From: Candidatus Bathyarchaeota archaeon
Lineage (GTDB): Archaea; Thermoproteota; Bathyarchaeia; Bathyarchaeales; Bathycorpusculaceae
Assembly: GCA_963717465.1 (NCBI GenBank)
Contig: OY970340.1
Location: 1,952,001 to 2,016,000 of the forward strand
DNA length: 64,000 nucleotides
Reading direction: 5' to 3'
Within the stretch, counting starts at the first letter, position 1, and each line of letters begins with the position of its first letter. Below, piece by piece: positions 29,604 through 62,694 of the stretch. The position numbers and the translations under genes were made by a program. Below the pieces are notes generated by a model. That model searched no databases. It saw only the letters and a program-made list of their open reading frames with translations, and was not told where the DNA came from.

Positions 29604-30437
29604 TTAGCTTGCGTCTGTCGATGTGTAAATTACAGTGTAGTAAACTGTTTGAGCCGCGCTAAGATGCAAGTTCAAAGCTTTACCCTGGGCAGTTTTGCAG
29701 TCATACATAGACTCGACGCTTGTGCCATGCCTACCAACACCTTCGCGTACGTTTAAATCCCAATTCTGCCCTACTTGCGTTTCACTTCCGCCAACATCAC
29801 TATAAAACGCAGCCGTCACTACAGCAGTGTTTGCATTTGCCGCCTGCAGGCTAAAATCGTAAACTTTAATCACTTTCCCAGTTACGGCCGCAACTATCGA
29901 GTTATCTCCACTCGCGCTTACGCTTCCAGTTACAACTTGATAGGTTCGCTGTGCAGTTTGAGAAACAAGCGTAGCTAAGTTGCCGCCTGTCTCCTTAGCC
30001 ACGTTAGCTGTTTGGCTCACTATAGTTGCGAGGTTTCCGCCTGTTTCTTTTGCAACATTAGCGGTTTGGCTTGCAATAGTGGCAAGATTGCCAGTTTCTA
30101 AAGCTGGGCTAGCAGGAATATTTGCCACGCTTGTTTTAATTGCGTCTAAGTCAGTTTTCGCTGCTGCTAGATTTCCGCCGCTTTCTTTAGCTAAACCAAC
30201 TGAATCAGTACCTAACGTAACAGCTGGTAAGGCGTTTACACCAATTTTACCCGAAGAATCCACGGCAAGCATGTTTGCTGGCGTATTAGGGTCTTGAATG
30301 TGAATATTTCCAATTGATACGCTCTCAGTTTCTAAGACGGCATCAACCTTAAGCCCATTACTTGTAACTTGAAGCTGCCCAGTTGACCCATCCGCATTTT
30401 TTATAATAACTGCTTGTTCAACAGTGCTAGAACTCAA
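29604..30437 (-). CDS. Putative head fibre/decoration protein with 18-aa repeats
   Basis: AKETGGNLATIVSQTANV-type repeats; directly follows the MCP; SD GGAGGT. Confidence 0.55.
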   Translation of the reverse strand: MSSSTVEQAVIIKNADGSTGQLQVTSNGLKVDAVLETESVSIGNIHIQDPNTPANMLAVDSSGKIGVNALPAVTLGTDSVGLAKESGGNLAAAKTDLDAIKTSVANIPASPALETGNLATIASQTANVAKETGGNLATIVSQTANVAKETGGNLATLVSQTAQRTYQVVTGSVSASGDNSIVAAVTGKVIKVYDFSLQAANANTAVVTAAFYSDVGGSETQVGQNWDLNVREGVGRHGTSVESMYDCKTAQGKALNLHLSAAQTVYYTVIYTSTDAS

Positions 30438-30562
30438 TTTTAATTAACCTCCAAAATCCAAAATCAAAAGTTTTTATTTGAGAAATATTGCCGGCTTTTA
30501 ACGGTCCCAAGACTTAAAAGACTGGGGCGAGGGAAAATTGTGGAAAACTGGAAACTGCATGT

Positions 30563-31462
30563 TTAGCTTGTGTTCATTCCAGTGATTGCACAGATGCAGT
30601 AGCCATTCGCAATGTAAGGAGTCTTGCGGTAACTCGTGAATGGTATAATCTTTCTAAGTCGCTTCTGGATGTCAATGTCGGTTGTGATCTCTTGCTTTGT
30701 CACCATGAAGCCCATCGGTGCATAGTTATTGTTGGGGTTTTGGCCATCGCTAATACAATATACTGTTCCTGGCGGGATTAAGTTGCTAACTAGCAGCGTC
30801 CAAATGCCAACTTTCTGCTCAACCTCATTCGTCAACGGATTCGTTACTTCACGGAAAATGTTTGGAAACGGCAAATTCCGCAAGGACTCTTCTTGGATTG
30901 GGTTGCAAGCGATGTATTTCATTATGAAGTTTTTCTGCTTTATTAGCCGGTTTGCATGGTTCAAATCTTCTAGTCCACAACCGCCGCTAACAGTGATTAA
31001 TGTGCCCGTAGCGCTTATAGTGTTGCCAGTAGCCGCGAAAGAGGTGCCGTTCAGTGTTGCAGCTGCTTGAATTGCTGTTAAGCAATCTAGCTCTATTTGG
31101 TACATGGTACGGAAGGCAAGACGCATCATTTGAGTATCGACAATCCCTAATTCATAGTCCGTGATCATTTCAATGGGAATTTCTACTTCTTCACCGTAAG
31201 TGTCAGGGGTTATTGACACGCTAGTTAAGGGTGTGAAATCCATTGCTGCGGGCGCTGCGATACCTTTTCTGAAGATTCCGACTGCAACGTTTCCGTTCTC
31301 TTTGACGTAGGTTCTTGTTCTGCCCTTAATAATTGGGTCTGGAACGAATAGCTTAGCCAGTATCATTGCGTTTGTTGCCATTTGCAGGATTTTTTGATGT
31401 AGTTCTGGGTATTGAATTGCTGCACTGTCATCCATCGTTACTTGGTCTGGAGTAAAACTCAT
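30563..31462 (-). CDS. Major capsid protein, HK97-type
   Basis: Position after protease/cement; SITPDTYGEEVEIPIEMI.D, IACNP..LR, LLVSNLIPPGT..ISD. Confidence 0.8.
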   Translation of the reverse strand: MSFTPDQVTMDDSAAIQYPELHQKILQMATNAMILAKLFVPDPIIKGRTRTYVKENGNVAVGIFRKGIAAPAAMDFTPLTSVSITPDTYGEEVEIPIEMITDYELGIVDTQMMRLAFRTMYQIELDCLTAIQAAATLNGTSFAATGNTISATGTLITVSGGCGLEDLNHANRLIKQKNFIMKYIACNPIQEESLRNLPFPNIFREVTNPLTNEVEQKVGIWTLLVSNLIPPGTVYCISDGQNPNNNYAPMGFMVTKQEITTDIDIQKRLRKIIPFTSYRKTPYIANGYCICAITGMNTS

Positions 31463-57948: not shown

Positions 57949-58368
57949 TTATTTTTGTTGTATGATCTTGTCTATGCGATTTCTGATGTTTTGCAGTCGC
58001 TCAACATAGTTGCTGATATTGGGCTTTTCAACTCTTATCTTATCTTCTAAGTAAGAGCTGTTAGATTCCATTTCGGCGATAACTTCCTCTGTGGTTCTAG
58101 GCATTCCTGAGATGTTTCCAAACGGCGTCCATAAGAGTTCTTGTCTTCCTTTTTCCGTGATTTCGTATCTGCCATCATCACGTTTCTTTATTATTCCTTG
58201 TACTGAAAGATCCTCAAGTAGTGGGTAAATTGAGCCCGGCGAAGGTCTCCACCAACCTTGGCTTACTGTTTCTATTTGATCCATTATTTCGGCTCCGTTT
58301 TTGGGTGATTGCTTTAATAATGTAATTATCCATACGCGGAGTCCTCCTCTTTTGACAAGTCTAAACGT
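57949..58368 (-). CDS. PadR family regulator, apparent ACG start
   Basis: WRPSPGSIYPLL; frame extends 28 codons upstream (RGGLRVWIITLLKQSPKNGAEI) to AGGTGA-TATCGA-ACG. Confidence 0.8.
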   Translation of the reverse strand, partial: TFRLVKRGGLRVWIITLLKQSPKNGAEIMDQIETVSQGWWRPSPGSIYPLLEDLSVQGIIKKRDDGRYEITEKGRQELLWTPFGNISGMPRTTEEVIAEMESNSSYLEDKIRVEKPNISNYVERLQNIRNRIDKIIQQK

Positions 58369-58426: not shown

Positions 58427-58763
58427 TAATAGTATCCATTCTAATAAACATTCCTAAGCACGGAGCTGTCTAATCTTTGAGGCATAAGCTCCTTTCTGGC
58501 TTTTCTGTAAAAATTCAGGGCATAGGTCGAAAGATCGCTGGCACCGTAAAGTCCTTATCTGTGAAAAAGGCTTACTCAAAATTTTTTATGAAAAAGCGTT
58601 ATCTGAAGACTATCTTAATTTGTTCATTTAAACGATTTGTCACTTTACATAGAAAAAGTTTAGATACATCTTCTTTTTTGATGTATCATAGGCTTTGCTA
58701 ACATCTTTTTTTCACTTTTAGTGAATGGGTTTTTAACTCATCAGTTTGGATGGGATGTTTTAA

Positions 58764-59531
58764 TTAGTCAGATTTGGCTTCTCTGTGGAATTTTTGTAAC
58801 CATTTGCGGGCTTTTGATTGGGCTTTTGGTGTTGAAGGGGTGGAAGGAGCAAACGGACAATTTACCTGACAAGTTATCTTCTGATATGATATTTTATCCT
58901 CTGGAATAAAAACGCTTATTATTGGTTGGAATGCAAGTATGCTGACTCCTACTAAAACCCATGTTAACTGTTCCGATTTAATATTGTTTTGAATACTTAG
59001 TGTATCGGTTGCACTTGCGACTGTTATAGCAGGATAGCCTGCCTCAACAGCAACTGCATAAACAACAACGTTGTATATTGTGGGAGTTAAGTATGGCCAA
59101 GAAGACCCATCTATGAGCCAAATAACTTGTCCGCTTGCTTGGTAAATATTTGGGGTAGTAGTTGCAGTTATTGAAAGAAATGCTGTGGTAGGCGCTTGAT
59201 TTGGGTTGCCAACTGTGCTGATATTATATGCCTCAGTAAATGCAATCCAAGGATAATCCTGCAAGAGGTTTGGGTCAGTTGAGTTGATAGAGACGAAAAC
59301 TGTAACTGGGTTGTTTACGCTAATTGAGCCTTGTGCAGTAAATAAGAAAGTACAAGTTACGGTTATATTCGGATGATTAGGCCAATAATCAATTGGCATT
59401 TGTAAAATAGATGGAACTGTAATATTTGGTACAGAGGAAATAAAAAGTACGCCGATTGGAACTATTGTGATAAAAGCAAGAAAAAGCATTATTGCAACTG
59501 CCCATCGTTTATGCTTATTTTGCATTACCAT
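58764..59531 (-). CDS. Two-TM membrane protein
   Basis: N- and C-terminal TM segments with a beta-rich loop. Confidence 0.6.
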   Translation of the reverse strand: MVMQNKHKRWAVAIMLFLAFITIVPIGVLFISSVPNITVPSILQMPIDYWPNHPNITVTCTFLFTAQGSISVNNPVTVFVSINSTDPNLLQDYPWIAFTEAYNISTVGNPNQAPTTAFLSITATTTPNIYQASGQVIWLIDGSSWPYLTPTIYNVVVYAVAVEAGYPAITVASATDTLSIQNNIKSEQLTWVLVGVSILAFQPIISVFIPEDKISYQKITCQVNCPFAPSTPSTPKAQSKARKWLQKFHREAKSD

Positions 59532-59585
59532 GCCTTCTCTCTAATTTAGTTATCATTTAGTTTAGAGAATTGTTAAGTTTTTGGG

Positions 59586-59651
59586 TTACTTGCTTGCTTT
59601 GCTTGCGTTTTGTATTAGGGTTATCCATTTATTTTGTCCTTCAATTGTTAT
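59586..59651 (-). repeat. Orphan 3' end of an IS6-like transposase gene
   Basis: Encodes ITIEGQNKWITLIQNASKASK*, versus ITIEGKNKWITLIQNASKQKRE* at 60855-60787. Confidence 0.9.
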
Positions 59652-59738
59652 TCTAGGCTCTGTTAATTTATCGTCAAATTTTTCTGGGTAGTAACTGTCG
59701 TCAGATGAAAGGCTTTGATGTTTAATTTGCTGATTAAT

Positions 59739-60209
59739 TCATGGGGTTAAGTACAATTTTCCTTTGTTGTAATTCCAATTCCAATGAGTAAAAATCCCAA
59801 GAATATCCATGCCTAATAGATTAGGAGAGGGTTCGATTTTCTTTCTTTTTGAGAATGGAATTACCAAAATTCTTTGAGGGTTAAAGATTTCTTCCTTTGG
59901 TTCTGTGTTTCCGCCTATAATATTAAATTTAATTTCTGGATAACAAAGAATTCTAGGGCGGATTTCTTTACCATTAGCCATTTGGCAAGTGTGAATAGAT
60001 TTGGTTAATTTTTTCACATTAATATTGATTGACTTAGCGAAAAAAGGCGATAATGTCGTTGTAGTTGCTCCCGAATCAATAATAAAAAAAACATCTTTTT
60101 GATTTTTTATCCATTGAGAATGACTAATTGAACCAACTATTGCAGCATAAGTGTAAATTGACTGCGTTAACTCGTCTTCTTCTGTAACAATGTCCGCAAT
60201 TAACTGCAA
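59739..60209 (-). CDS. Retropepsin-like aspartyl protease
   Basis: FIIDSGATTT and NLLGMDIL. Confidence 0.88.
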   Translation of the reverse strand: MQLIADIVTEEDELTQSIYTYAAIVGSISHSQWIKNQKDVFFIIDSGATTTTLSPFFAKSININVKKLTKSIHTCQMANGKEIRPRILCYPEIKFNIIGGNTEPKEEIFNPQRILVIPFSKRKKIEPSPNLLGMDILGIFTHWNWNYNKGKLYLTP

Positions 60210-60220
60210 TTATTTTTCCC

Positions 60221-60535
60221 TTAAAGAAGGAAACATGTTGGCTTTTGACTAACGAAATCAATAGCAAACGAGTCGGAATTTTGACCTGATGCTTTAATTT
60301 TTCGCATTAAACTGTCAATGTCTTTCTCAGCAAATACAACTTTTCCTTGTCTAACAGCTACGTATTTGTTTACAAATTTAGGGTCATGTGATAATACCTT
60401 TTTTGACTCAAGTAACCATTTATAGTCTGCTTGTAATTTTTCACGGCGTTCATTAAGCGCACTAGAACTTGATGTCACTCTCGGTCTTACCACTACAACA
60501 GACATTGGTTTTTTCCTCATAACTTTGCTTTTCAT
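60221..60535 (-). CDS. DUF5678-like protein
   Basis: W...NKYVAVRQGKVVFAEKD..L; adjacent to the aspartyl protease. Confidence 0.7.
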   Translation of the reverse strand: MKSKVMRKKPMSVVVVRPRVTSSSSALNERREKLQADYKWLLESKKVLSHDPKFVNKYVAVRQGKVVFAEKDIDSLMRKIKASGQNSDSFAIDFVSQKPTCFLL

Positions 60536-60786
60536 TTTAGTGCACCCTGTTCCTATATAAGCTTTGGCAATGTTTTGTAGGCATTTATTGGCGCATGGAT
60601 AAATTACATGCGACTTATTAGTCTATATTTAAAATTCAGCAGTAATTATTAATGAAATTATGTGATTGTACTCGAACAGTAACAATCTAAAAGTAGAGGG
60701 ATAGTGGTGACTTCACGCCTTTATCATGCCTTAAATGGGTATGTCACAATATTGTCCATGAAGCTTTATCTACTACCCTTTCTCTC

Positions 60787-61914
60787 TTATTCTCGCTTTT
60801 GTTTACTCGCATTTTGAATTAGAGTTATCCACTTGTTTTTTCCTTCTATGGTTATTCCGCATGCTTCGCTTGGAGTTTTGCCTTCTAATGCTTCATGGGG
60901 TCTTATGTAGTTGTGGAATATTTGGTAGCCTTGAAGGATTGCTGTGTCGTTTGTTTTTAATCCTCTCATGGTTTTTTCTCTATCTCGGATTTCACCGTTC
61001 ATTCTTTCCATTTTGTTATTGTTTCTATCGCCCCTAAGTTGAATGTGAGCAATATGCTCGGTTCTCGTCTCTTTCAAGTATGTCCAATATTCTTTTAGGT
61101 ATGCATCGCGGTAAGCGGGTAAACCATCAGTTATGAACGTCATTGGTTTTTTGCCCATAAGCTCTTTAGACATTCGCAATAGGTTTCTTGCATCATGCTT
61201 ATCTTTTGTTTCTGCGACTTCTTGCGCTATTCAAAACCTTGTCTCATCATCCATCATTGAGAACAAATATTTCATGTTACCTTTAACTTTGAGGTAAATT
61301 TCGTCTGCTCTCCATGTATCGCTTACGTTTGGCACTATTTTTTCTGTGTAGTTTTTCATTAGGGCTATGTACTTTTTAATCCAGTTATAGATTGTTTGAT
61401 GCGAAATCTCAACACCTAACAACTGTAAAGATTCCATTGTATTCCGTAATGATTCACCACTAAAGTAAAGTTGCATGGCACTAGTGATTGCTTGAGGATT
61501 ATGCTTCATTCGTTCAAAACCTATGTTGAAAGTAAAGTCTTTGTGGCAATTTTTGCAGTTGAATACTTGGATATTTCCAGCTTTGTTTTTTCTTATGCCA
61601 TGTTTAACTATGTTTGGTGAACCGCAATAGATGCAATTTGAAAGGTTTTCTATTGGAGTAATTGTTCTGACTTTTACTTCTGCTCTCATTGTTAATGAGA
61701 ACTTTACCGCATGAATGTGTTTGCATTCTACATGTCGGTATGTGTTGTCGGGGCATTGGCAAATCCATTCATCGTCTATTTTGGTTACTGCGTACTCTCC
61801 GTTTCCTGATTGTGATTTGACTTTATAGAAGCATTCGTCAACTCTTTGTATTTGGTTTTGGAGTTTTGCGATTGCTTCTCCGCGTTCTTCTCTTGTGGTT
61901 GTTAGTTGTGCCAT
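60787..61914 (-). pseudogene. IS6-family DDE transposase with N-terminal SWIM and zinc ribbon, interrupted by in-frame TGA
   Basis: CQCPD..CKH, CIYC..CKNC, WRADE, ITDG, NNKMER, YNxxRPH-like. The two ORFs are one frame broken by TGA 61233-61231 (DDETRF*IAQEV, likely TGG>TGA). Confidence 0.88.
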
Positions 61915-62042
61915 TTTACTTACCCTTATGTTTACCTAATAACACACCCACTTGTAAGCATTTAGGTGTGCTATTGGACAGCGTTATAGGTAAATTAATA
62001 TACCACTTAACCTATACCTACACCTAACAAAAGGTAAAGAAA

Positions 62043-62228
62043 ATGGGCGAAATAACTAACCTAAACAAGGCAGCATCAAAAACCGAGTCTCTACGAACCA
62101 CTGTTCCATCAAGCATCATTCACCAATTCGGCTTAACCGAATGGGATAAACTTGAATGGATTTTAAAGGCTGAAGGCGGAGAACTTATTATTCAGGTTAA
62201 ACCAATAAAAACAGGAAGAACCGAATAA
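62043..62228 (+). CDS. AbrB/MazE-type DNA-binding protein
   Basis: SLRTTVP..I..FGL..DKLEW. Confidence 0.8.
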   Translation: MGEITNLNKAASKTESLRTTVPSSIIHQFGLTEWDKLEWILKAEGGELIIQVKPIKTGRTE

Positions 62229-62247
62229 AGAACAGGAGAAATTTACT

Positions 62248-62487
62248 TTGGCAGTTAAGGATAGAACAGGAGAAAAGTGTCCATTCTGTGACAAAGGCAA
62301 ACTTTTTGTTACAGGAAAAAGAGAAGTTTTGGAACCTGCTATAACACCTAAAAGTGGTGAATATCATAGAGAATTTACTGAATATGAGTGTGATGCTTGC
62401 CACAAAAGAACTGGTGCGCATGGACTAGGTATAGGGGTATCGCTTCATCTAACAGGTTCTGCAAAAGTCGAAAAAAAGAGTGATTAA
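62248..62487 (+). CDS. Small zinc-finger protein
   Basis: CPFC..CDAC; SD AGGAG. Confidence 0.65.
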   Translation: MAVKDRTGEKCPFCDKGKLFVTGKREVLEPAITPKSGEYHREFTEYECDACHKRTGAHGLGIGVSLHLTGSAKVEKKSD

Positions 62488-62694
62488 TTAGGTCATGCCT
62501 CGAAAGTTTACATGGAGAGTCAAGCCTTGAGAACTTTACAGAACCCTAAGCACGTTAGATAGAATAACATTCTTTAAATGATTTTAACGGCAAGCTTTTT
62601 TGAGACATTACGTCTCTTCTAATCGTTTGACTAATTTGTCATCTAGTTTGGCAGTGGTTAGTTTATACAGGTAACTTAACCAAGCCCTCGTGCC

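Follow-up and report, generated by a model that had tools for sequence, protein, structure and literature searches.

The window is the whole stretch of 64,000 nucleotides that was analysed, taken from a genome of Candidatus Bathyarchaeota archaeon. Within it, positions 58462-62545 form a block of 4084 bp whose termini are both of the type found in one transposon family, with an 8-bp target site duplication (TSD), CTAAGCAC, just outside them. On the low-coordinate side the block is preceded by a gene of the PadR family (57949-58284). If the block is a composite of an older element (E1) and an incoming one (E2), as argued below, its features are as follows.

58454..58461: left TSD copy, CTAAGCAC; the same 8-mer recurs at 62546-62553, each copy lying immediately outside an inverted repeat
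58462..58551, plus strand: outer right end (IRR1) of the putative older element E1; GG..CTGT tip, with the TSD directly before it
58764..59531, minus strand: older cargo gene, 255 aa, predicted membrane or secreted protein (from the ORF listing)
59586..59655, minus strand: orphan transposase tail assigned to E1, starting with the final base of codon Cys354 and ending with the TAA stop (59586-59588)
59656..59708, plus strand: inner right end (IRR2) of the putative incoming element E2; terminal and subterminal box
59739..60209, minus strand: cargo assigned to E2, retropepsin-like aspartyl protease, 156 aa (PF13975, 4.5e-7; PF13650, 1.2e-6)
60221..60535, minus strand: cargo assigned to E2, DUF5678 protein, 104 aa (PF18929, 3.3e-7)
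60536..60786, minus strand: non-coding spacer from the transposase stop codon to the DUF5678 gene, homologous over its full length to the spacer of an element in genome G054
60787..61914, minus strand: IS6-type transposase gene, 375 codons, in-frame TGA at 61231-61233 (PF13610, 3.7e-18)
62043..62228, plus strand: small AbrB/MazE-like gene, 61 aa, divergent; weak PF04014 match
62248..62487, plus strand: small Cys-rich ORF in the left arm, 79 aa (from the ORF listing); missing from the related locus L010, against which it appears as a 240-bp gap
62494..62545, minus strand: left end (IRL), two boxes; the family 13-mer is matched exactly
62546..62553: right TSD copy, CTAAGCAC, identical to the left copy

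Both genes that a first-pass annotation had placed between two transposase tails (DUF5678, 60535-60221; protease, 60209-59739) are present, as is the further cargo gene it described beyond them (59531-58764). The transposase is of the IS240/IS26 type with a DDE catalytic domain. Translated with TGA as tryptophan for the Pfam search, it matched PF13610 over residues 199-338 with 66.4 bits (cut-off 27; E = 3.7e-18), and paralogue B, whose element is intact (genome 1246698-1250326), aligned with positions 1-201 of the 202 in the NCBIfam profile NF033587 at 123.7 bits, just below the cut-off of 125. Several Cys/His columns are conserved in the N-terminal part of the alignment (C56, C58, H65, C68 and H70; C96, C99, C122 and C125), the zinc-binding domain profile of IS1/IS1595 (NF050000) reached 23.9 bits at a cut-off of 28, and the catalytic glutamate is followed by the motif E..N...R.R. 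At 61231-61233, three paralogues and L010 have a tryptophan where the window gene has TGA. Since this in-frame stop codon replaces a conserved residue, the "full" gene is a pseudogene. The use of TGA as a sense codon was considered and rejected; the paralogues have TGG at this site, which points to a nonsense mutation. With this stop codon and with both right ends imperfect, the window element now looks inactive. The AbrB-like protein is identical at 61/61 positions to its counterpart in L010 and the related locus L011; homologues occupy the same position in 38 loci, and the gene is a core partner in this family.

On the minus strand, the full transposase gene ends in (G)ITIEGKNKWITLIQNASKQKRE, and the orphan tail reads (R)ITIEGQNKWITLIQNASKASK. 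At the nucleotide level, this forms a direct repeat (59598-59653 and 60802-60857) spaced at 1204 bp and identical at 46/56 positions. From I356 to K373, 17 of the 18 residues are the same, with nine synonymous changes and a single non-synonymous one (Q/K); the final four codons of the two tails differ. The similarity sets in abruptly at GAATAAC, 5' of which the two copies have nothing in common at either the DNA or the protein level. All of this agrees with the initial description of the tails. The nine synonymous changes against one non-synonymous change show that both diverged as parts of working genes. Moreover, the orphan tail had been attributed to a different homologue, which is borne out by its 82% identity to the resident tail against 89-93% to tails of other lineages (L016, 93%; L022, 89%; L010, 89%). 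A genome-wide tblastn search recovers it at E = 7.5e-4. With only 21 codons, the displaced tail is covered by no ORF of at least 30 aa with a start codon and is predicted not to be expressed.

The nature of the break point is given by its neighbour. The first base of the tail (59655) adjoins the outer G (59656) of an IS6-type inverted repeat, GGCTCTGTTAATT, placing the 13-mer of the family's ends exactly where the tail breaks off. With up to two mismatches, such 13-mers occur 492 times in 6.1 Mb counted on both strands, or about 8e-5 per position. The right junction is thus formed by a two-part inverted repeat of the standard IS6 type, at its outer tip, and not by the recombination core that had been proposed at GAATAAC. 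A search of 400 bp around each of the four transposase genes found no inverted repeats, the true ends being 365-4700 bp off, and in a DNA alignment of the four paralogues with their flanks similarity broke off with the stop codon, which left the ends hidden. They were located only through L010 and L011, in which a 2434-bp unit bounded by inverted repeats is 100% identical and lies between different 8-bp duplications. The consensus of the family's inverted repeat is GGTTCTGTNAA(G/C)T, with GG tips and CTGT. In the window, the outer right end has GGAGCTGTCTAATCTTTGAGGCATAAG as its terminal box, then a subterminal one (58500-58526) and, at 58540, a third repeat-like 13-mer; the inner right end has GGCTCTGTTAATTTATCGTC followed by a subterminal box at 59688-59708; and the left end has GGTTCTGTAAAGTTCTCAAGGC and CATGTAAACTTTCGAGGCATG as its terminal and subterminal boxes. 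Two end types emerge from these boxes. One, with GAGGCAT-type boxes, comprises the window's left end, its outer right end and the right end of L010, while the other, with CGTC-type boxes, comprises the inner right end of the window and both ends of the G054 element. Over 60 nt, the left ends of the window element and L010 are identical at 55 positions, and IRR2 matches at 20/21 positions a right-end-type repeat of L172, which follows the transposase gene there at a distance of 40 nt.

Relatives of the window element are numerous: species genomes yielded 364 and metagenome contigs 443. Inverted-repeat pairs with identical 8-bp flanks number 84 in the first 96 loci, distinct duplication-flanked sites among the related loci number 91, and the source genome holds four more elements with perfect inverted repeats and 8-bp duplications. 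Family elements measure 2.0-8.1 kb and carry the AbrB-like partner gene together with cargo that varies and may lie to the left or the right of the transposase gene. One of them, intact in another genome of the genus (G054, contig 106, 5464-9182; duplication TATTTTTG), has its transposase, homologous spacer, DUF5678 gene, protease gene and right end in the order proposed for E2. In the window, the transposase 3' end, spacer and cargo likewise run on into the inner end, homologous to this separately inserted element. The unit that had been taken for a cassette is thus the right arm of a transposon. DUF5678 and protease genes are paired in 12 loci, and in L109 and L030 the pair follows the transposase gene on its downstream side; a literature search on DUF5678 returned nothing relevant. 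The 255-aa cargo protein matched no Pfam or NCBIfam profile. Its distant homologues (24-29% identity) directly follow the transposase gene in L081, L034 and L022, and at the DNA level the tail alone of the window's right arm aligns with these three loci.

Taken together, these data make it probable that the tail is what is left of the transposase 3' end of a resident IS6-type transposon with cargo, that another family member abuts it to the base with its two-part right end, and that recombination fused the two. Before this event, E1 would have consisted of a left end, the AbrB-like gene, the transposase gene, the gene of the 255-aa membrane protein and a right end, and E2 would have brought in a transposase gene, spacer, DUF5678 gene, protease gene and its own right end. 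Transposition of E2 into codon 354 of the E1 transposase gene in the same orientation would create a direct repeat of more than 1 kb, which could then collapse by recombination between the co-oriented homologous left parts. The 5' part of the resident gene and the left end of the incomer would likely have been lost in this step. What remains would begin with a hybrid gene and the new cargo, continue with a fossil right end and the old tail, and close with the cargo and right end of E1. Replacement of the transposase 3' end, as first proposed, therefore describes the outcome well, with a newer 3' end and cargo upstream of an older tail and cargo; a dedicated mechanism for it does not stand.

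Support for a fusion comes from the left arm of the window element, which is L010-like in its left end, AbrB-like protein and transposase 5' part. A FastTree tree of the first 800 nt of the transposase gene places the window copy and L010 as sisters (support 0.94), and a sliding-window scan together with the FastTree tree hints at a switch of lineage near nt 800-825; the AU test for nt 825-1125 does not reject the clade of the window gene, L010 and L011 (p = 0.84), and the switch is at most hinted at. The pairing of the left end with the outer right end indicates that the incoming DNA was joined on the left inside homologous sequence, a point on which the original proposal holds. For the window this pairing rests on the box motifs, since over the 26-nt repeat the left end matches the outer and the inner right end almost equally (15 and 14 positions). 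A clearer case is L030 (duplication GTACCTTG), which has the same architecture: the inner repeat that closes its DUF5678/protease arm abuts a tail from about codon 339, and its left end agrees with the outer right end at 20/26 positions but with the inner one at 13/26. Among 13 elements that have a right-end-like 13-mer in their interior, 12 have a left end closer to the outer than to the inner end. The tip of one element abutting an interrupted family member was seen in the window, L030, L067 and L158. Several points stand against this explanation. The TATA-like motif present at most insertion sites of the family is missing beside the inner end at 59656, no nested intermediate keeping E2's own left end was seen, and tails just 82% identical would make homologous recombination inefficient unless the left parts were more alike. 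No locus has a nested insertion in the opposite orientation, although random nesting would predict some.

The same arrangement could also arise without homologous recombination. Adjacent deletion is known for IS26, and if E2 and E1 had inserted in tandem at one 8-bp target, the right end of E2 could have attacked the E1 transposase gene on the same molecule and removed the DNA in between, in an IS6-type adjacent deletion. Arrays of two to four different elements with identical 8-bp copies between them do exist (L041, L057, L067, L073 and L074), and this route too would yield identical outer duplications. Such a deletion would, however, retain the left end of E2, whereas the left end in the window is of the GAGGCAT type and not the CGTC type; the bias of left ends toward the outer right end in L030 and across the 12 of 13 elements speaks against it as well, and we regard this route as unlikely. 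Another reading, possible but somewhat doubtful, has the composite formed elsewhere and arriving whole by means of its left and outer right ends, such that CTAAGCAC dates the arrival of the 4.1-kb block. The duplication does lie at the outermost ends, the sequence outside the left TSD (GAATGTTTATTAG, reverse complement of 58441-58453) fits the TATA-like target pattern of the family, and L030 is another duplication-flanked composite, but a DNA search found no second copy in the source genome or 40 relatives. This reading bears on the order in which things happened and does not conflict with fusion of two nested family members. When the 4.4-kb stretch with its flanks was compared with the 40 relatives by DNA search, the flanks matched in none, leaving no empty site to inspect. 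Only one public sequencing run (X1) shares words with the stretch, at a share of 0.07 and in contigs only; it covers just pieces of related transposase genes and contains no joints.

The most far-reaching proposal was that promoterless modules of tail and cargo are captured site-specifically at GAATAAC to build an integron-like array. This would predict tails sharing one start codon downstream of full genes. Among 160 related loci and the source genome, 26 orphan tails were found, with about 20 different start codons from 191 to 356, and only 5/26 lie co-oriented downstream of a full gene, the others including upstream, inverted and solitary ones. Several tails do begin at codons 351-356; such a cluster is expected, as the detection limit of the search lies at about codon 356. 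The tail in L112 also starts at GGAATAAC with no inverted repeat directly adjoining, and left ends fused to a tail and cargo are mobile, as at 30324-31007 of the genome (duplication TGTCTTAG). Nevertheless, in the window the junction is an ordinary transposon tip, the "cassette" belongs to an element found intact and TSD-flanked in G054, no tyrosine or serine recombinase is encoded within 55-64 kb, and the element has one tail only and hence is no array. A capture system of this kind is very improbable; the locus is a commonplace instance of transposon nesting, in an archaeal family of which little has been described, and needs no new recombination system. Three candidate fragments were left out of the census: the "truncated" gene of L036 is a frameshifted full-length gene, the extra "tail" of L147 is a tandem duplication of about 27 nt within a full gene, and the N-terminal piece in L179 runs off its contig.

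Among known systems, the closest is the IS6/IS26 family, including its long zinc-finger branch (the ISCpe7 group) and ISDsp3, with which the window family shares an IS240-type DDE transposase, 8-bp duplications and GG/CTGT repeats. In the sections available, members of IS6 average about 800 bp, with short inverted repeats that have GG tips and an internal cTGTt motif, and ISDsp3 is the sole passenger-carrying member listed (Varani et al., 2021, PMC7986276). The long zinc-finger branch appears there as clade h and, in the available text of another study, as clade VII (Harmer and Hall, 2019, PMC6807381). It is this branch that the N-terminal Cys-rich extension of the window family's transposase recalls, and E..N...R.R resembles the archaeal signature E--F---K-R quoted in that text (PMC6807381). 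Unlike the IS6 norm of about 0.7-0.9 kb with a single transposase ORF, the window family spans 2.0-8.1 kb with an AbrB-like partner and cargo, and its ends are two-part, with a subterminal box. IS15, described in the sections cited as one IS6-family element inserted in another (PMC7986276), is alike in that one family member entered another; in the window, the interrupted copy lacks its 5' part, a single, likely hybrid transposase gene is left, and two cargo modules stand in series inside one duplication-flanked unit. A 2019 survey states, in the part available, that passenger-carrying transposons were undetected in archaea (PMC6563490), and the literature found on Bathyarchaeia insertion sequences, available in part, held no description of a cargo-carrying IS6-type family. 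The archaeal IS6-type branch is apparently large and uncatalogued.

Rhs/YD-repeat loci contain displaced orphan C-terminal tips, and the outcome in the window is similar, with a new 3' end and linked genes brought in, the old ones pushed downstream and the left junction in conserved sequence. The right junction, however, was made by a transposon end, and the toxin/immunity logic of Rhs does not apply. With integrons and SSV-type elements with an att site in the integrase gene, only the picture of gene modules in series is shared; the window locus lacks an integrase, any attI/attC-like site and a fixed junction. The 4.1-kb block is probably a case of two family members merged into one unit with two cargo modules, and if such fusions are common, they would be a simple route for archaeal transposons to gather accessory genes. 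We suggest only tentatively that right arms are stacked in this way more generally, a resident being hit by a family member and the shared left parts recombining, whereby cargo would grow in the IS6-type family. After every such event a fossil right end, in some cases with a transposase tail, would separate one cargo module from the next. If true, stacking would account for the lack of 5' pieces among the 26 partial copies seen, every one of which is a 3' tail, and it would amount to a displacement route, similar to that of Rhs, by which multi-module transposons with defence or accessory genes are built. The cargo of family elements in the source genome includes restriction-modification genes.

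The transposase gene belongs to Pfam DDE_Tnp_IS240 (66.4 bits against a cut-off of 27), while the NCBIfam IS6 model aligns with it from end to end at 123.7 bits, under the cut-off of 125. Reviews of the IS6 family name 8-bp duplications, GG tips and cTGTt among its marks, put the mean size at about 800 bp and list a single passenger-carrying member (PMC7986276, PMC6807381). The block in the window is organized as follows.

Features of the window block
62248-62487, divergent from the minus-strand transposase gene: small gene
62043-62228, likewise divergent from it: second small gene, AbrB-like
61914-60787, minus strand: transposase gene, 375 codons
60535-60221, minus strand: DUF5678 gene
60209-59739, minus strand: aspartyl-protease gene
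59655-59586, minus strand: orphan copy of the transposase C-terminus, 21 codons
59531-58764, minus strand: 255-aa gene

This genome holds four full transposase copies, 60-73% identical to one another. The window copy has an in-frame TGA (61231-61233) where the three paralogues and L010, one of the loci with related transposases (L001-L189), have Trp (TGG), and the "full" gene is thus broken, a pseudogene. The first-pass annotation had described the two tails accurately: from I356 to K373, 17 of 18 residues agree, the codon-by-codon comparison gives nine synonymous changes against one non-synonymous, and the similarity (46/56 nt, at a spacing of 1204 bp) starts abruptly, with none found between the two tail regions upstream of GAATAAC. 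The final four codons differ. Genome-wide tblastn recovered the window tail (E = 7.5e-4) and one other, at 30341-30514, which begins at residue 316 and adjoins no full gene; 2726209-2726258 holds a third tail, which is decayed. Past the protease TGA, the same frame stays open for 50 codons, across the inner repeat described below and the orphan tail, to the TAA at 59586. No ORF of at least 30 aa with a start codon occurs in 59586-59741, and the open frame is probably due to chance.

No inverted repeats were found close by the transposase genes. The ends came to light in the best 80 related loci of species genomes, two of which (L010 and L011) share a 2434-bp unit, 100% identical, with ends GGTTCTGTAAAGTTCTCAAGGC and GGAACTGTAAAGTC and with 8-bp duplications that differ between its two sites. 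It holds one passenger gene and a divergent AbrB-like gene, the latter identical to that of the window (61/61). A search of the first 96 loci with the consensus GGTTCTGTNAA(G/C)T gave 84 pairs of repeats, spanning 0.6-11.3 kb, whose 8-bp flanks are identical. Apart from the window block, four elements of this genome have ends and duplications that are perfect.

Further elements in this genome
238978-243315: element A (4.3 kb, locus L001), perfect ends and duplication
1246698-1250326: element B (3.6 kb, locus L002), perfect ends and duplication
2805162-2812638: element C (7.5 kb, locus L003), perfect ends and duplication
30324-31007 (L004:3325-4008): 684-bp unit without transposase, perfect inverted repeats, duplication TGTCTTAG

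A, B and C are intact family members. Judged from translations, their cargo comprises methyltransferase genes, restriction-type genes and type I R-M genes, and looks like restriction-modification and toxin-antitoxin genes. The 684-bp unit is a mobile tail-plus-cargo derivative: its 14-bp left end is joined directly to transposase residues 313-373, followed by an ORF for an 86-aa membrane protein and the right end.

In the window, the family 13-mer is found exactly at 62545-62533 on the minus strand with CTAAGCAC directly beyond it (62546-62553), and a second CTAAGCAC directly precedes GGAGCTGTCTAAT at 58462. With family ends flanked by CTAAGCAC on both sides, 58462-62545 (4084 bp) is one target-duplication-flanked unit. 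Within it lies an inner repeat, GGCTCTGTTAATT, which reads towards the transposase gene and whose outer G (59656) adjoins the first base of the orphan tail (59655). A full two-part end has this inner 13-mer as its tip (second box at 59688-59708) and matches at 20 of 21 positions the repeat found 40 nt after the transposase gene of L172; 13-mers this near the consensus occur at about 8e-5 per position in this genome. Across 112 duplication-flanked elements, a set that includes three element pairs duplicated between the genome and metagenome collections, internal end-like 13-mers (at most one mismatch) are present in 27, and 27 of the 32 matches point to the transposase gene. Part of them are subterminal sites, located 66-190 bp in from a terminus; others, 0.1-1.4 kb inside, may be fossil ends.

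The boxes within the ends distinguish two contributors, an older resident element (E1) and an incoming one (E2). GAGGCAT-type boxes mark the window left end, the outer right end and the L010 ends, and CGTC-type boxes the window inner right end. In another genome of the genus (G054), an intact element on contig 106 (5464-9182, locus L109, duplication TATTTTTG) has CGTC-type boxes at both ends and the order transposase, spacer, DUF5678, protease, right end, its spacer being homologous to that of the window over the whole length. The 3' end of the transposase gene, the spacer, the DUF5678 and protease genes and the inner end thus make up the right arm of a known type of family member, E2. The left end, AbrB-like gene, transposase 5' part, orphan tail, 255-aa gene and outer end belong to another member, E1. 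The window left end is 55/60 identical to that of L010, the first 800 nt of the transposase gene are sister to L010 (support 0.94), and distant homologues of the 255-aa gene lie directly 3' of the transposase gene in L081, L034 and L022. The spacer itself (about 250 nt after the transposase stop, 60536-60786; L109:7636-7934) is non-coding and conserved between the window and the G054 element, one block being TGATAAAGGCGTGAAGT...CTATCCCTCTA, and might have a regulatory role or specify a small RNA.

The right junction is the product of a transposon tip, and the left junction lies within sequence common to E1 and E2. The simplest route would be insertion of E2, in the same orientation, into codon 354 of the E1 transposase gene, after which the left parts of both would form a long direct repeat and recombine, the latter an inferred step. 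No intermediate was seen. In an AU test of nt 825-1125, the unswitched gene tree was not rejected, and the gene is thus not proven to be a hybrid. Alternatively, the two could have inserted side by side at one 8-bp target, followed by IS6-type adjacent deletion. However, this would retain E2's own left end, which is at odds with the end types in the window and in L030. It is also at odds with a wider bias: of 13 elements that contain an inner right-end-like 13-mer, 12 have a left end nearer to the outer than to the inner end; the exception is L036, and the window is a near tie (15 outer, 14 inner).

L030 repeats the architecture of the window block, with transposase, DUF5678, protease and an inner repeat adjoining a tail that begins at about codon 339, then more DNA and an outer repeat (duplication GTACCTTG). 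A tail beginning at about codon 297 adjoins a repeat tip in L067, and in L158 the tip of a left end is separated by 8 nt from a tail that is inverted. With L036 (frameshift), L147 (internal duplication) and L179 (contig edge) left out, 80 genome loci, 80 metagenome loci and this genome yielded 26 orphan tails. All 26 partial copies away from contig edges reach the C-terminus, and no 5'-only fragments were present in the 160 loci and this genome, contig edges excluded. The first-pass annotation had proposed integron-like capture of cassettes at the transposase 3' end and predicted, as support, co-oriented tails starting at the same codon. Instead, the starts range from residue 191 to 356 and only five tails lie downstream of a full gene in its own orientation (window, L030, L075, L112, L177), the very pattern of random starts without co-orientation that it had itself set against capture. 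Five lie just inside a left end as deletion derivatives (L004, L012, L020, L061, L177); the remainder are upstream, inverted or solitary. The L112 tail likewise begins at GGAATAAC, and one such coincident start is expected since about nine breaks fall within the last 16 codons, the detection limit. In L147 (1030-1129), a tandem duplication of about 27 nt from the Cys354 codon of a full-length gene shifts the reading frame.

An IS that has inserted into a second IS is already known from IS15 (PMC7986276), and the window is likewise a case of IS in IS. What it adds is a clear case in which two family members have been fused into a single unit that contains two cargo modules, and the present survey adds the survival of 3' stumps only. 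A 2019 survey states that no passenger-carrying transposon had been detected in archaea (PMC6563490), and no description of the family was found in the literature, supplements aside, on IS6 passenger genes in archaea, Bathyarchaeia insertion sequences or IS6 in Thaumarchaeota.

In five loci, two to four different members of the family are arranged in arrays.

Arrays
L073:2410-11155: TGCTTTTG four times
L041:8852-13287: same 8-bp sequence at every junction
L074:4723-16047: same 8-bp sequence at every junction
L057:4846-13792: same 8-bp sequence at every junction
L067:8911-14986: same 8-bp sequence at every junction

The identical junction sequences point to repeated insertion at one exact target. 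Most of 91 insertion sites in L001-L189 have, on their right-end side and 5-10 nt past the duplication, a T-rich, TATA-like motif (TTTATA-like); at the window site it is GAATGTTTATTAG (58441-58453), upstream of a PadR-family gene (57949-58284).
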